Below are positions 2,772 to 8,225 of a DNA stretch of 8,509 nucleotides, in pieces (positions within the stretch are counted from its first letter, which is position 1; each line of letters opens with the position of its first letter). The position numbers and the translations under genes were made by a program. Location: the IMG/VR virus record IMGVR_UViG_648276647_000011, one strand, 5' to 3'. Source of the stretch: a virus. Its lineage: Duplodnaviria; Heunggongvirae; Uroviricota; Caudoviricetes. The notes beneath the pieces are model-generated. The model saw only the letters and a program-made list of their open reading frames with translations. It searched no databases and was not told the origin of the DNA.

Positions 2772-2838
2772 TTCCCGAACTACCAACTGATAACTGAATT
2801 AAATTTATATTTCGATCTTAACGGGTCGGGGAGTTTTT

Positions 2839-3138
2839 ATGTCTGAAAATCAGAATATCCGCAATATATACAAAAAAGAATACGCTGGTTTTTTCACGGA
2901 AGATTCCATTGAGAATCTTGAAGATGTAATAAATGTTATTGCACTCCTTTCAGCATTGACAGGTGAAATTAATACCAGTGAGAGAATGCCAGTGCAAATT
3001 AATGAAATGGAATCATTAACTAACATTCTTTATCGGGAATTACGAGCGATTAAGTCAGGAATGCATACTTCTGGCGGAATTTTTTCATGGCATAGTGCTG
3101 AAACCGCCGGGATTGCCAAAGCAATAAGTAACGAGTAA
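2839..3138 (+). CDS. hypothetical protein, 99 aa; AT-rich orphan gene immediately upstream of the primase
   Basis: ATG 2839 preceded by GGGGAG (2825-2830). Separated from the upstream operon by an AT-rich 67-bp spacer and followed by a hairpin terminator. Composition is clearly lower G+C than flanking genes. No recognisable motif. Confidence 0.6.
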   Translation: MSENQNIRNIYKKEYAGFFTEDSIENLEDVINVIALLSALTGEINTSERMPVQINEMESLTNILYRELRAIKSGMHTSGGIFSWHSAETAGIAKAISNE

Positions 3139-3140
3139 TT

Positions 3141-3180
3141 AATAAAAACCCCACTGCAAAAGGTGCAGTGGGGTGGAGTT
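3141..3180. terminator. bidirectional-looking intrinsic terminator; stronger in minus orientation
   Basis: 10-bp GC-rich stem CCCCACTGCA (3149-3158) / TGCAGTGGGG (3164-3173) with loop AAAGG. On the minus strand it is followed directly by TTTTTATT (reverse complement of 3141-3148). On the + strand the T-run (3176-3179) is separated from the stem and interrupted. Confidence 0.55.
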
Positions 3181-3186
3181 TTATAT

Positions 3187-5856
3187 ATGAAATCTGACAT
3201 CAGAAAAGAGATTATTAACCGTCTTATCCGTGATTACAACTTCAAAGAAGAAAATAACTACCTCCGGTATGGTGTTTGTCCGCAATGTGGAAAGAAAGAG
3301 TTGTTTACCAGCCTTGAAAGGCCGTACATCGTACACTGTGGGCGCGAAAATAAATGCGGTACAGACCTGCTGACCAAAGAACTTTACCCGGATGTGTTTT
3401 CATCATGGTCAGATCGTTATATCAGCACGAAAGACGAGCCATATGCAGCGGCGGCAGCTTATCTTCAGGAAGCGCGCAATATTGCTGTGGGGCCACTGAA
3501 GGGCGCATTTACTCAGGAGCGATACCAGGACAAGGAAAACGGCGAACAGGCCGCTACTGTGCGTTTTACGCTGGCTGACGGCGTGTGGTGGGAGCGCATC
3601 ATAGACCGGCCGGAACGTTTCGCGCGTAAGGCGAATTTTTCCGGCAGCTACAAGGGGTTGTGGTGGGCTTATCCGGGAGCTGATTTAAGCAAGGCCAACG
3701 AAATCTGGATTTGTGAGGGCATCTTTGATGCCATCAGCCTTAACCAGAATGGCATTGCAGCCGTTTCTGTCATGTCTGCCGTGAATTATCCTGATAAGGC
3801 GCTGGAAGAACTGGCAAAGCTGTGCGGAGATAATCCCCGTCCGGTTATTGTGTGGGCGCTGGATAACGGGCGTGCGGGTGAGCGTTACGCGAAAAAACAT
3901 TCAGAACGCAGCGCCGAAGATGGCTGGAGAACGGCGGCGGCGTTACCGGGTAAAAACAGCAATAAACGCGACTGGAATGATTTACACGTCGCCGGAAAGC
4001 TGCGTGGCCATGATGTGAAAAGATACCGTCATTACGGTGATTTATTGCTGGCGAAATCTCCGAGAGATAAGGCGCTGATAATATTTTCCTTTCGTGAGCG
4101 GAAGGAATTTCATTTTACTTTTGATAACCGTGTTTTCTGGTTCAAACTGGACATTGAGCGCTATATGAAGGCTGTTGAGCGTGCCAAGAATGAGCGAAAT
4201 GTTGATGAGGATGAAGCGCGCAAAATTGCACTTAAGGAATCTGGTGCAGTAAAAGAAATCGCAAACTGTAACCCAGCGCCGCTTTATTACATTCGAAATA
4301 ATGACACGGATGAAGCATGGTATTACTTCCGTGTTACGTTCCCGGATGGTGCTACGGTGAAAAACACCTTTACATCAGGACAATTAACATCCTCATCTGA
4401 ATTTAAAAAACGCCTGTTACACGTGGCAAAAGGCGGTATTTATACTGGAACGACTACGCAGCTTGACGCATTAATAAAAAATGACCTTCCCGCAATAAAA
4501 GAGGTTATTGGTCAGGATTTTATCGGATACAACAAGGCGATTGGGGCATGGCTGTTTAATGATATTGCTGTTTACAAGGGAAAAACTTATGAAATCAATG
4601 ACGAGGATTATTTTGAAATTGATGGCATAAACGCAAAACCATTAAGCGAAAAACCCACATTACAGATTAACTACAAAAAACCGGATGAGTTTACAGAGTC
4701 TTGGGTGGAAGATCTCTGGCTGGCTTTTGGTGAAAAGGGAATTATTACCCTGGCTTTCTGGTTGGGCTCCCTGTTCAGCGAACAAATCCGAGATAAAGAA
4801 GAATCCTTCCCCTTCCTTGAAGTCACCGGGGAGCCCGGAACGGGTAAATCAACATTGATTGATTTTTGCTGGCGGTTGTGCGGTCGTGACAACTATGAAG
4901 GCGTTGATCCAACCAAAGGATCAGAGGCGGGCTGGAAGCGTACCTTTGGACAGGTCGCCGGATTACCTGTTGTTCTGATTGAAGCGGACCGGGGAGACAA
5001 TGCGCAAAAAAGAGGTGCGTTTGACTTCGATAACCTGAAAAGTCTCTATAACGGCGGTGGTATCGGCGTTCGTGGTGTTAAGGCCAACAATAACAACACC
5101 TATGACCCGGATTTTAAGGGCGCTATCGTGATTGCGCAGAATGCGCGGGTAAACGCCTCTCCGGCAATTATTGAGCGCCTGATACGTATATACACCGATA
5201 AAAAACGCCATTCACCTGATACCCGCCTGGCGGCGAGACGGCTGGAACTTTACCCCGTCGAGAAGGTATCTGGGTTTATTCACCGAGCGGTAAGTCAGGA
5301 ACGGGCGATTATGCAAACGTTCCTAGAAGTATCTCCAGCTGAAACGGAACGCCTTTGCGGATGCGAAAATATTCGCCATCCCCGCATCGCTAAAAATCAC
5401 GCACAACTTATCGCGCTGGTCAGAGCGCTGAAATGCGTTATTGATATCCCGGATGAATGGCTTGATGCCACATGTCTGGAACTGGAACAAATGGCAACAG
5501 CGCAGGTTAAAGCGGCGGCGGCTGATTTACCGGAAGTGATGGAGTTCTGGGAGGCGTTCGACTTCCTGGACGGCATAACAAAATACGGTGTAAACCACTA
5601 CGGCAAGGGATGCCGTGAGGGGATTGCTATCAGTATTCCGCAACTGGCACAGGCTGCCGCCATTCACCGCGTGGAGATCCGAACTGACCGCGAAATGATT
5701 GAGTTGCTCGGAGCCGGACGTTCCCGACCTTTGACAGGCCGCAAAACCATTCGTAGTGAGGTGTCCAGACAGGCAAACGCCGGAAGAGGGGTCGCCGAGG
5801 CCAGAGAGCCGGAAGTACTGAAATGCCGGATATTCAGTTACAAGGAGGGGCGCTAA
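3187..5856 (+). CDS. phage/plasmid primase-helicase of the P4 alpha type: N-terminal zinc ribbon, TOPRIM primase, P-loop NTPase (helicase)
   Basis: Long ORF. Cys cluster CPQCG...HCGRENKCG (nt 3277-3360). TOPRIM-like ICEGIFDA (nt 3709-3732) and LDNGRAGE. Walker A GEPGTGKST (nt 4828-4854). ATG 3187 with SD GGTGGAG (3172-3178) is preferred over the track GTG at 3163, which lies inside the terminator stem. Confidence 0.88.
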   Translation: MKSDIRKEIINRLIRDYNFKEENNYLRYGVCPQCGKKELFTSLERPYIVHCGRENKCGTDLLTKELYPDVFSSWSDRYISTKDEPYAAAAAYLQEARNIAVGPLKGAFTQERYQDKENGEQAATVRFTLADGVWWERIIDRPERFARKANFSGSYKGLWWAYPGADLSKANEIWICEGIFDAISLNQNGIAAVSVMSAVNYPDKALEELAKLCGDNPRPVIVWALDNGRAGERYAKKHSERSAEDGWRTAAALPGKNSNKRDWNDLHVAGKLRGHDVKRYRHYGDLLLAKSPRDKALIIFSFRERKEFHFTFDNRVFWFKLDIERYMKAVERAKNERNVDEDEARKIALKESGAVKEIANCNPAPLYYIRNNDTDEAWYYFRVTFPDGATVKNTFTSGQLTSSSEFKKRLLHVAKGGIYTGTTTQLDALIKNDLPAIKEVIGQDFIGYNKAIGAWLFNDIAVYKGKTYEINDEDYFEIDGINAKPLSEKPTLQINYKKPDEFTESWVEDLWLAFGEKGIITLAFWLGSLFSEQIRDKEESFPFLEVTGEPGTGKSTLIDFCWRLCGRDNYEGVDPTKGSEAGWKRTFGQVAGLPVVLIEADRGDNAQKRGAFDFDNLKSLYNGGGIGVRGVKANNNNTYDPDFKGAIVIAQNARVNASPAIIERLIRIYTDKKRHSPDTRLAARRLELYPVEKVSGFIHRAVSQERAIMQTFLEVSPAETERLCGCENIRHPRIAKNHAQLIALVRALKCVIDIPDEWLDATCLELEQMATAQVKAAAADLPEVMEFWEAFDFLDGITKYGVNHYGKGCREGIAISIPQLAQAAAIHRVEIRTDREMIELLGAGRSRPLTGRKTIRSEVSRQANAGRGVAEAREPEVLKCRIFSYKEGR

Positions 5857-5858
5857 AC

Positions 5859-6862
5859 ATGCCGATCAGAAAGATGCATGATGGGCGGTGGCTGCTCGAT
5901 ATCAGGCCATGCGGACGTAAAGGGAAGCGCATCAGAAGAATATTTGACAAAAAATCGATAGCTACAGCAACTGAACGGTACATCATAGCGAACGCCGAAA
6001 AGCGCGAGTTTATACAGGGCTATCGTGACCGGAGAACGCTTAGCGATTTACTGGAATTGTGGTGGGTCTATCACGGTCAGCACAGGCGAAAGGCAAACAC
6101 GGATAAACAGCAGCTTGGCAAAATTATTAATGAGCTTGGAGCTGACATGTTTGCGGTGGAACTCGACAAATTAAAAATCATTGCATGGCGATCGCAGAAA
6201 ATTGCAGAAGGATTAAAGCCGTCCTCAGCAAACAGATACATGAACAGATTATCGGGGATGTTTACAGCCCTGAAAAAGATCGGTTTGTGGGATGCAGAGC
6301 ATCCGGTTCGTGGTATTCCTGTTCTTTATGTAAAGCAGCGGGAAATGGCCTTTTTATCAAAAAACGAGGTCACATTGTTGCTTGACGGGCTGAATGGAGA
6401 TCAACGAAGGGTTGCGCTCTTGTGTCTTTGTACCGGAGCCCGCTGGAGTGAGGCCAGCAGATTGTATGGAGAGCAAATAGTTCATAACAGAATAACGTTT
6501 CTGGAAACCAAAAACGGTAGAAAAAGAACGGTGCCTGTGTCGCAGGAAATATGCGATGCCGTAAAAACAAAAGAAACCGGGCGACTGTTTGATGTGAAGT
6601 ACAGAGAGTTTTGCCGGGCATTAAAAAAATAAAACCCGATTTACCGAGGGGGCAGGCTGCGCATGTATTGCGGCATACATTCGCCAGTCACTTTGTGATG
6701 AACGGTGGCAACATTCTTGCGCTACAAAAAATCCTTGGGCATGCGACAATTCAGCAGACTATGGCATACGCACATTTTGCACCGGATTATCTGGCAGATG
6801 CCATGAGATTTAACCCGGTAGCCAACATAGTGATCACCGAAGAAAAAGAGCCAGCAGAGTAA
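5859..6862 (+). pseudogene. int: tyrosine integrase, P2 Int-like, interrupted by a single-base frameshift at an A7 run (6623-6629); may be a pseudogene, a sequencing error or a recoding site
   Basis: Two consecutive ORFs (frame 0 5859-6632; frame 2 6611-6862) that together align without gaps to recalled P2 integrase (e.g. KPSSANRYMNRLSGMFTAL, CTGARWSEASRL, IKPDLPRGQAAHVLRHTFASHF, QTMAYAHFAPDY). Box II HxxR and the presumed catalytic Tyr (nt 6767-6769) are only in the second frame. ATG 5859 lies 2 nt after the primase stop, with AGGAGGGG at 5843-5850. Confidence 0.85.
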
Positions 6863-6891
6863 CCCGCAGAACGCTACATTCACAGCAAAAG

Positions 6892-6918
6892 AGGTCAGTT
6901 TCCCGCTGACCTTTTTTG
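6892..6918 (+). terminator. rho-independent terminator downstream of int
   Basis: Stem AGGTCAG (6892-6898), 7-nt loop, stem CTGACCT (6906-6912), followed by T-run 6912-6917. Confidence 0.75.
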
Positions 6919-7110
6919 TTGGCCAGAACCAACGGTAACAGCAATGCAATGGTGGCCATATTGCAGTGGTGCCGCCATCAATTTTTTGCTCCCCCTGATT
7001 ATCAGAAAGAGTCAAACAGTGGTGAGATACATTTCAATCACAGAGAGTTAATGAAAGTGAGACAGAGTGAGTGAGTTTAATTAACATTTTAAAGGGTCGC
7101 GCTAAAGTTT

Positions 7111-7430
7111 GGGGGGGGATGCGCAAAGCGGTTACAACGGTTACAAATTTAAAATTGCTTATTTTTGTATTATATATCAATATATTATAACTGGTCCGAT
7201 GAGTTACAATAGCGGTTACAACGCGGTTACATGTAACCGTTTTGTTAGGTTACAGGCGGTTACAGGTTAAGTTTTTAATTGATTGATAATAAAGTGCTTT
7301 TTGAAACCTGTAACCGTTGTAACCGCAGTGTAACCGCAAAGCGGTTACAAACAATATCCATTAAAATCATGTTTTTAAGTGGTGTTTTTGACTGTTGTAA
7401 CCGTTGTAACCGCTTTGCGCACCCCCCACC
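7111..7430. repeat. iteron array (heptamer GGTTACA/TGTAACC, 13 exact copies plus 1 variant) bounded by 36-bp inverted repeats; putative replication origin
   Basis: Inverted repeats 7111-7146 and 7395-7430 are 34/36 identical as reverse complements. GGTTACA at 7130, 7139, 7214, 7225, 7248, 7258, 7343 and AGTTACA at 7202. TGTAACC at 7232, 7309, 7318, 7329, 7396, 7405. Perfect palindrome GGTTACATGTAACC at 7225-7238. Hairpin TGTAACCGC-AAA-GCGGTTACA at 7329-7349. AT-rich blocks at 7147-7200, 7265-7308 and 7350-7390. Confidence 0.6.
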
Positions 7431-8042: not shown

Positions 8043-8225
8043 ATGTCTTTCCCTTGCCCGGCCTGTGGCGCTTCAGCCCGCACCCGTGGTCGTTCGTTGG
8101 AAGAACACGAACAAAACATCTACAGAACGTATTACCAGTGCAATAATATTGAGTGTGGGGCTTGTTTTTGTACGCTTGAGTCGTTTGTACGCATTACTAA
8201 GCGCAGGAAGTCGAAAACTTCATAG
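8043..8225 (+). CDS. ogr: Ogr/Delta-family zinc-finger transcription activator (P2 Ogr / P4 Delta-like), 60 aa, single domain
   Basis: ATG 8043 with strong SD. Cys4 pattern C5-X2-C8-X24-C33-X4-C38. ARTRGRS...YRTYYQCNNIEC...FCTLES resembles P2 Ogr (ARTSRYI...ERYHQCQNVNC...F.TYES) from memory. Confidence 0.8.
   Translation: MSFPCPACGASARTRGRSLEEHEQNIYRTYYQCNNIECGACFCTLESFVRITKRRKSKTS

Follow-up and report, generated by a model that had tools for sequence, protein, structure and literature searches.

A satellite integrated in the chromosome of Escherichia coli carries, just ahead of its primase gene, a small AT-rich gene for a protein of 99 residues. Is this gene a recent passenger or a regular constituent of the satellite, and what could its product do there? 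The original prediction, made from the letters of an 8,509-nucleotide stretch of DNA (hereafter the window), took it for an inserted orphan and proposed a moron in the position of P4 epsilon, whose product could be a helper-specific derepressor or an anti-defence factor. We address these questions by examining the gene's surroundings, its relatives, its pattern of variation, and its association with a second gene farther downstream.

Gene order and RNA elements of the satellite

The window comprises most of the satellite. Strain 600468 contains a near-identical copy, which sits between gcd and hpt. A P4-type integrase gene occupies the left end, just beyond the window, and beside it is an AT-rich open reading frame (ORF) of 350 codons (positions 1–1053). 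This ORF has a GC content of 0.26–0.37, is replaced or absent in some relatives (loci L014–L016), and has no family match in Pfam, PHROGs, NCBIfam, or PADLOC; it is probably a variable cargo or defence slot of the satellite. Next come the gene for AlpA (1149–1469), an ORF labelled "Icd-like" by PGAP (1669–2190), three small ORFs, and the 99-aa gene itself (2839–3138, plus strand), which starts with ATG. The gene that follows on the plus strand (3187–5856) encodes a primase-helicase with Toprim and Walker A motifs (phrog_1139, E = 6e-299) that bears only a remote resemblance to P4 alpha. Immediately beyond it is int2 (5859–6862, plus strand), which encodes a second, small tyrosine recombinase corresponding to the integrase of P2/P88-type phages. 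The order is completed by Ogr/Delta (8043–8225) and, past the window, by a 236-aa ORF with no assigned function and a P2-family major capsid gene; it includes no psu, sid, or epsilon.

Two further features of the right-hand part deserve mention. The region between int2 and Ogr/Delta (7111–7430) is rich in iteron-like repeats, with dense copies of GCGGTTACA(A) in both orientations and 36-nt inverted repeats that are 94% complementary, and this array is a candidate for the replication origin. Also, members of the satellite family carry a P2-family major capsid gene of their own, beside a "hypothetical protein" ORF of 236–291 residues and Ogr/Delta. This capsid module is located downstream of Ogr in most loci (for example, 14971–16952 in L001) and upstream of Icd in L014, L015, and L021 (945–2883). 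The family is P4-like in architecture yet distinct from P4, and we found no description of such a type of satellite, or of the 99-aa protein, in the literature that we searched.

The Icd-like ORF encloses three RNA elements, all assigned by Rfam to the plus strand: c4-a1b1 targets (1758–1810), isrK (1771–1852; 52.1 bits against a gathering score of 50), and a C4 antisense RNA (1878–1965; 74.7 bits against a gathering score of 45). Given their presence, the element has an RNA immunity system of the P1/P4 type, with a C4-type antisense RNA and its targets (1758–1965) heading the early operon to which the 99-aa gene belongs. C4/isrK RNAs head anti-repressor operons elsewhere (PMC4825925), and the epsilon gene of P4 sits in the equivalent operon of that satellite (PMC8628076).

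The 99-aa family and the signals around its gene

The gene is, as originally remarked, unlike its neighbors in composition: its GC content is 0.363 and its GC3 is 0.30, as compared with a GC content of 0.49 in both flanking genes. It is not an orphan. A search of 5.8 billion proteins recovered 51 clusters of relatives at 55–99% identity, from E. coli and Salmonella. When 1.84 billion representatives were searched exhaustively with a profile, only 14 were recovered, and a second profile search, which added Yersinia, Serratia, and Erwinia, brought the total to 76 homologous clusters (at 90% identity), every one of them annotated as "hypothetical." A search of genome contigs for related loci returned only one locus. 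Relatives as distant as 26% identity, in all five genera, occupy the same slot in the same satellite architecture: an integrase gene, AlpA or a helix-turn-helix gene, Ash/Icd, small ORFs, the member of the 99-aa family, and the primase gene, often followed by Int2, Ogr/Delta, and the P2-type capsid gene. Even the homologues at 26–38% identity lie directly before the primase gene or one gene before it. The primase gene is the constant downstream neighbor, and the association holds across two primase architectures. Moreover, low GC content (0.34–0.42 versus 0.47–0.56) is seen in every allele and every distant relative, which makes it a trait of the family and not a sign of recent arrival. The 99-aa gene therefore belongs to the core of the satellite's early operon, where its synteny is deep.

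Purifying selection is evident from its dN/dS of about 0.25–0.35 (Nei–Gojobori), and the gene thus encodes a constrained protein. The protein is acidic, with a pI of 4.85 and a net charge of −6. Among 12 relatives examined, the net charge was negative in all (−1 to −8), and the pI was 4.6–5.4 in 11, the B allele of L015 having a pI of 6.1. AlphaFold predicts a helical hairpin formed by helices 21–45 and 54–74, for which pLDDT is 82–88; the model as a whole reached a pLDDT of 71 with the more diverse alignment (58 with a shallow one) and is of moderate confidence only. The base of the predicted hairpin is flanked by two conserved motifs, Y-x-GFFTE (residues 15–21) and SGGIFS (residues 78–83).

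Searches for a known function or fold came up empty. The family has no match in Pfam, PHROG, NCBIfam, or PADLOC, and no DNA-binding motif was found in the protein. Nothing was matched by tblastn among 50,697 phage records, a sequence search of the PDB gave chance matches only (E of about 1), and comparison of the model with the PDB and BFVD by Foldseek yielded no match with an E value under 1.9.

The spacer upstream of the gene (2772–2838, plus strand) is indeed AT-rich (GC content 0.36), and the strong ribosome-binding site noted in the original prediction is present as a Shine–Dalgarno sequence, GGGGAG (2828–2833), located 5 nt ahead of the ATG. No σ70-like promoter is predicted in the spacer. 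Across 12 E. coli loci the 73-nt spacer is almost unchanged. Abutting the Shine–Dalgarno sequence is a small stem-loop (2813–2828, CGATC/GGGTCG), and a stem-loop recurs at this position with other sequences in relatives: CGGCC/GGCCG in L019, TGACC/GGTCA in L004, TTGATC/GGTCAA in L009, and CTGCCTG/CAGGCGGCAG in L007. The position is conserved and the stems show compensatory changes; the stem-loop may be a regulator of translation or an attenuator.

The hairpin that had been assigned to the downstream end of the gene does exist, as a GC-rich stem-loop (3148–3174) with an 11-bp stem and 7 GC pairs, situated between the 99-aa gene and the Shine–Dalgarno sequence of the primase gene (GGAG, 3175–3178; ATG at 3187). 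It is doubtful, however, that it terminates the transcript of the 99-aa gene. An A-run stands in front of the stem, so that the structure reads as an intrinsic terminator for the minus strand, and its position is conserved with three unrelated stems (CCCCACTGCA/TGCAGTGGGG, CCCCCTGTA/TACAGGGGG, and AAGCGCCG/CGGCGCTT). When we scored five sequence-divergent versions (those of the window, L004, L007, L012, and L022), all five scored as minus-strand terminators and only some as plus-strand terminators. A promoter-like site on the minus strand (TTGTAA-17-AATAAT, 3239–3211) is found 24–52 nt into the ORF for primase, and L022 and L007 have such a site as well. Together with the terminator, it makes possible a countertranscript of about 60 nt covering the Shine–Dalgarno sequence and the ATG of the primase gene, as in antisense control of copy number. 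If such a countertranscript exists, the hairpin would belong to the control of primase and not to the 99-aa gene. A separate observation concerns L033 (E. coli E94), in which an IS903B element (3467–4435) is inserted exactly between the two genes.

Hypervariability and linkage to int2

The original prediction called for a comparison of the slot across related elements, and it is here that the gene stands out. Among 12 aligned E. coli loci, the 99-aa gene was the most variable gene and gave the sharpest peak of nucleotide diversity in the element: π was 0.2–0.45 over positions 2810–3130, peaking at 0.45 over 2952–3008, as compared with 0.03–0.08 in the flanks (the upstream gene, for a 72-aa protein, and the primase gene). 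The variation is concentrated in codons 33–58 (2935–3012, plus strand), which have a mean column entropy of 1.58 bits as against 0.38–0.49 bits in the conserved blocks. These codons form the predicted tip of the hairpin: they encode the distal part of helix 2, the loop, and the beginning of helix 3. Such an acidic helical hairpin with a variable tip, if the model is right, fits a protein that binds protein better than one that binds DNA.

Both dN and dS are raised in the gene. In its N-terminal half dN reaches 0.56–0.75, and dS for the gene is 0.3–2.7 versus 0.06–0.4 for primase. The high dS on near-identical backbones indicates that the alleles are old and have been moved by recombination. 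Indeed, an identical allele is found on diverged backbones (L016 and L021; dS of 0 in the 99-aa gene and 0.37 in primase), and alleles only about 35% identical are found on near-identical backbones (L022 and L029–L032); in L022 the flanks are 89–99% identical. The slot is thus variable among relatives, as the idea of a swapped cassette anticipated, and does not carry the same sequence throughout. On our reading, whole-gene cassettes pass from one satellite backbone to another through recombination in the conserved flanking sequence.

The variation is not independent of the rest of the element. At least four types of int2 can be distinguished, which are about 45–53% divergent in protein sequence. 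(In the window's copy, the loss of 1 nt from an A8 run at 6622–6628 shifts the reading frame; this copy is either a pseudogene or the product of a sequencing error.) When loci were divided according to int2 type, islands of fixed differences appeared in only two places across 8.5 kb: around the 99-aa gene (2773–3160) and around int2 (5761–6954). Windows outside these islands had at most one or two fixed differences. The islands are 2.6–2.7 kb apart, and Fst was close to 0 in the intervening primase gene and in the other flanks from about 1500 onward; the variable left end (1–1500) had an Fst of 0.2–0.3 with at most one fixed difference. Correspondingly, primase showed no fixed differences between classes of 99-aa alleles.

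The same association emerged from a census of 5,426 genomes, among which the 29 E. coli genomes with an A, A′, or B allele were exactly the 29 with int2 type 1. Four loci that were detected by their primase and had no blastn match to the 99-aa gene all proved to have the D allele and int2 type 3, a combination seen in five of five loci with the D allele and on two primase backgrounds. L033 carries a distinct allele with a fourth int2 type. Each of the four int2 types, then, pairs with its own set of 99-aa alleles. Mantel tests on 16 loci gave r = 0.82 (p = 1e-4) for the 99-aa gene and int2, r = 0.15 for the 99-aa gene and primase, and r = 0.05 for int2 and primase. At a fine scale the coupling is loose: alleles differ by up to 32% within a single int2 type, and the allele of L020 resembles that of L033 (int2 type 4) more closely than that of L016, with which L020 shares int2 type 2. 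The mapping of alleles onto int2 types is many-to-one and not perfectly nested. The linkage could also reflect ancestry, with two segments too divergent to recombine and surroundings homogenized by short patches of conversion.

Where do the int2 genes come from? Sequence comparison shows that int2 is derived from phage. UTI89 (L026) and about 290 other genomes have a P2-like prophage beside dmsA whose integrase gene, flanked by genes for C, Cox, and gpA, is 84% identical in nucleotide sequence to int2 type 2. The product of type 2 is 85% identical to the integrases of phages vB_EcoM-569R5 and P88, and that of type 1 is 81% identical to the integrases of Xuanwuvirus P88_4B11 and Chuche. The two groups of phages (UTI89/569R5-type and P88_4B11-type) have C repressors that are only 47% identical and Cox proteins that are unrelated, and hence the type of integrase marks the type of immunity in the likely helpers.

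To learn which phage modules reside in genomes that carry the satellite, we counted them with composite queries. The UTI89-type C–cox module was present in 7 of 16 genomes with a type-2 satellite and in 1 of 29 with a type-1 satellite (p = 0.0016; p = 0.02 after clones were collapsed). The P88_4B11-type module was equally common with type-1 satellites (7/29) and other satellites (10/31), the difference not being significant. Co-residence is thus half supportive, in that matching of satellite and helper is supported for one type only. The P88_4B11-type module was present in 17 of 60 satellite-carrying genomes as compared with 5.4% of background E. coli, a strong enrichment that is consistent with P88-like phages acting as helpers or with shared host lineages.

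Possible roles of the protein and comparison with known systems

What might the 99-aa protein do? Our tentative proposal is that it is a type-specific binder of a protein of the helper's lysogeny module (C, Cox, or Int), a reading on which the C4/isrK-headed operon, the acidity of the protein, and the variable tip of the hairpin agree. The conserved base of the hairpin, with its Y-GFFTE and SGGIFS motifs, would provide a common scaffold, and the hypervariable tip would confer the specificity of binding. Within a P2/P88-like helper, the candidates for the partner are the C repressor, Cox, and the P2-type integrase, and each satellite would carry the variant matched to the type of helper whose integrase allele it also has. 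From its linkage to int2, the gene is probably what determines the helper phage, or the recombinase, with which the satellite operates. The protein would then be a nonhomologous functional analogue of the anti-repressors encoded below C4/isrK-type RNAs (P4 epsilon, P1 Ant, and Gifsy AnrP), although it matches no anti-repressor in homology or fold.

The earlier suggestion of a helper-specific derepressor is plausible, with indirect support from the linkage to int2 type, the C4/isrK RNAs at the head of the operon, and the acidic protein. Two findings speak against it. The protein is no homologue of epsilon, and two loci of one sub-clade, L008 and L025, have a true epsilon gene (PF25738, E = 1.4e-19) between their member of the 99-aa family and the primase gene, so that simple replacement of epsilon is a weaker proposition. 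If the function of the family is uniform, plain epsilon-like derepression is probably not that function.

An extension of the proposal, which we regard as unlikely in this specific form, is that the 99-aa protein and the captured integrase constitute a co-adapted two-gene specificity module for one lineage of P2/P88-like helpers. For example, the helper's C or Cox would be neutralized by the one while the matching Int would be supplied for excision by the other.

Also to be weighed is the possibility that the linkage reflects co-adaptation inside the satellite and not matching to a helper, the 99-aa protein being a direct partner of the satellite's own Int2, as a directionality, accessory, or inhibitory factor. 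The linkage between alleles and int2 is complete across an undifferentiated primase gene, with four int2 types that each have their own alleles, and the two genes are read in the same direction in the early operon. But members of the family persist in L008, L009, L012, and L024, in which tblastn found neither int2 nor a remnant of it, and this argues against an obligate partnership. The variation of up to 32% within one int2 type likewise counts against Int2 as the partner. Directionality factors of the Cox/Xis type are small, basic DNA-binding proteins with a winged helix; the 99-aa protein is acidic, lacks a DNA-binding motif, and is, in a model of moderate confidence, an all-helical hairpin. 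We consider it rather unlikely that Int2 is the partner.

A role in anti-defence, or in competition between elements, strikes us as rather improbable. According to this explanation, the protein might inhibit a variable host or phage defence protein and would have diversified in an arms race unrelated to the identity of the helper. A small, acidic, hypervariable protein with old alleles and no homologues of known function is what one would expect of such a factor. The gene, however, is located in the replication/early operon and not at the integrase-proximal hotspot, it has no PADLOC match, and the linkage to int2 would be left unexplained.

Position, by contrast, is the chief argument for a regulator of replication like P4 Cnr, which would bind the downstream primase-helicase and control copy number or incompatibility. 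The order in P4 is orf88, cI, epsilon, orf151, orf106 (cnr), alpha; as cnr is the gene that adjoins alpha, equating our slot with the position of epsilon was imprecise. In 90% of P4-like elements, alpha is preceded by a gene of the Cnr family (PMC8628076). The synteny with primase across two primase architectures fits a Cnr-like role, as does the finding that co-resident satellites in a single genome (for example, ETEC4067) carry different alleles. Yet the protein does not match DUF5375/Cnr, and the 99-aa gene and primase do not co-vary. Primases 1–2% apart are paired with 99-aa proteins 40–70% apart, and the primase of L033 is identical in amino acid sequence to that of the type-2 locus L017, whereas their 99-aa proteins differ by 21%. 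The Mantel correlation with primase is low, and primase has no fixed differences. The lack of co-variation argues against a Cnr-like role, which we consider improbable.

Lastly, the notion of a recently acquired moron, a foreign cassette with a promoter and a terminator of its own, has in its favor the low GC content (0.36 versus 0.49) and the spacer and hairpin that flank the gene, but it is refuted by synteny and composition in distant relatives: all relatives carry the gene in the same place instead of in a patchy distribution, low GC content extends to the whole family, no promoter is predicted, and the hairpin reads as a terminator for the minus strand.

For P4 epsilon and a few PICI anti-repressors, it is understood how a satellite selects its helper and brings it under control. 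The 99-aa gene is a compact candidate for a determinant of helper range or recombinase specificity in an undescribed lineage of satellites that is related to P4 and possesses both a P2-type capsid gene of its own and an integrase of the helper type. If the two-gene module should prove correct, it would represent a class of helper-range determinants not described before, one that has no relation to epsilon and passes between satellites as a cassette. The two islands, linked across 2.6 kb of undifferentiated DNA, make predictions as to which pairs of alleles work together. Should the linkage turn out to have no cause but ancestry, the gene would nonetheless show clearly that a core gene of a mobile element can be hypervariable.

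How, finally, does the protein compare with known systems? P4 epsilon acts by binding the C repressor of the helper, which is the kind of type-specific protein binding that we propose for the 99-aa protein. It too is small (95 aa) and is encoded upstream of primase in an early operon below an immunity RNA of the C4/CI type. Unlike the 99-aa gene, which adjoins the primase gene, epsilon lies two genes before alpha, and the proteins share no similarity in sequence or profile. P4 epsilon matches PF25738 at E = 4e-50 and P4 ORF106 matches PF17345 (DUF5375) at E = 8e-63; none of 34 members of the 99-aa family matched either profile even at E ≤ 10, and hhalign comparison of the family with the epsilon alignment and with Cnr gave probabilities of 0.2% and 0.3%, respectively. 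(A weak hhalign match to epsilon, NILYREL..SG.H..IFS, vanished once diverse profiles were used.) Cnr (ORF106) resembles the 99-aa protein in its slot directly upstream of primase and in its length of about 100 aa, and differs from it in sequence and in working through alpha, the primase here showing no co-variation.

The P1 Ant and Gifsy-1 AnrP anti-repressors share with the 99-aa protein an operon headed by isrK and C4 RNA elements; they are larger and not homologous, and an anti-repressor role for the 99-aa protein is only putative. The closest parallel to the pattern of variation is provided by the immunity modules of P2-like phages, of which heteroimmune members have C repressors that are 43–63% identical on backbones that are more than 96% identical (PMC1904268). 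In those modules, as in the satellite, one short and very divergent segment that specifies specificity is set in a near-identical mosaic genome, but here the segment, which encodes an acidic, non-DNA-binding protein, belongs to a satellite and has a captured allele of an integrase gene as its partner.
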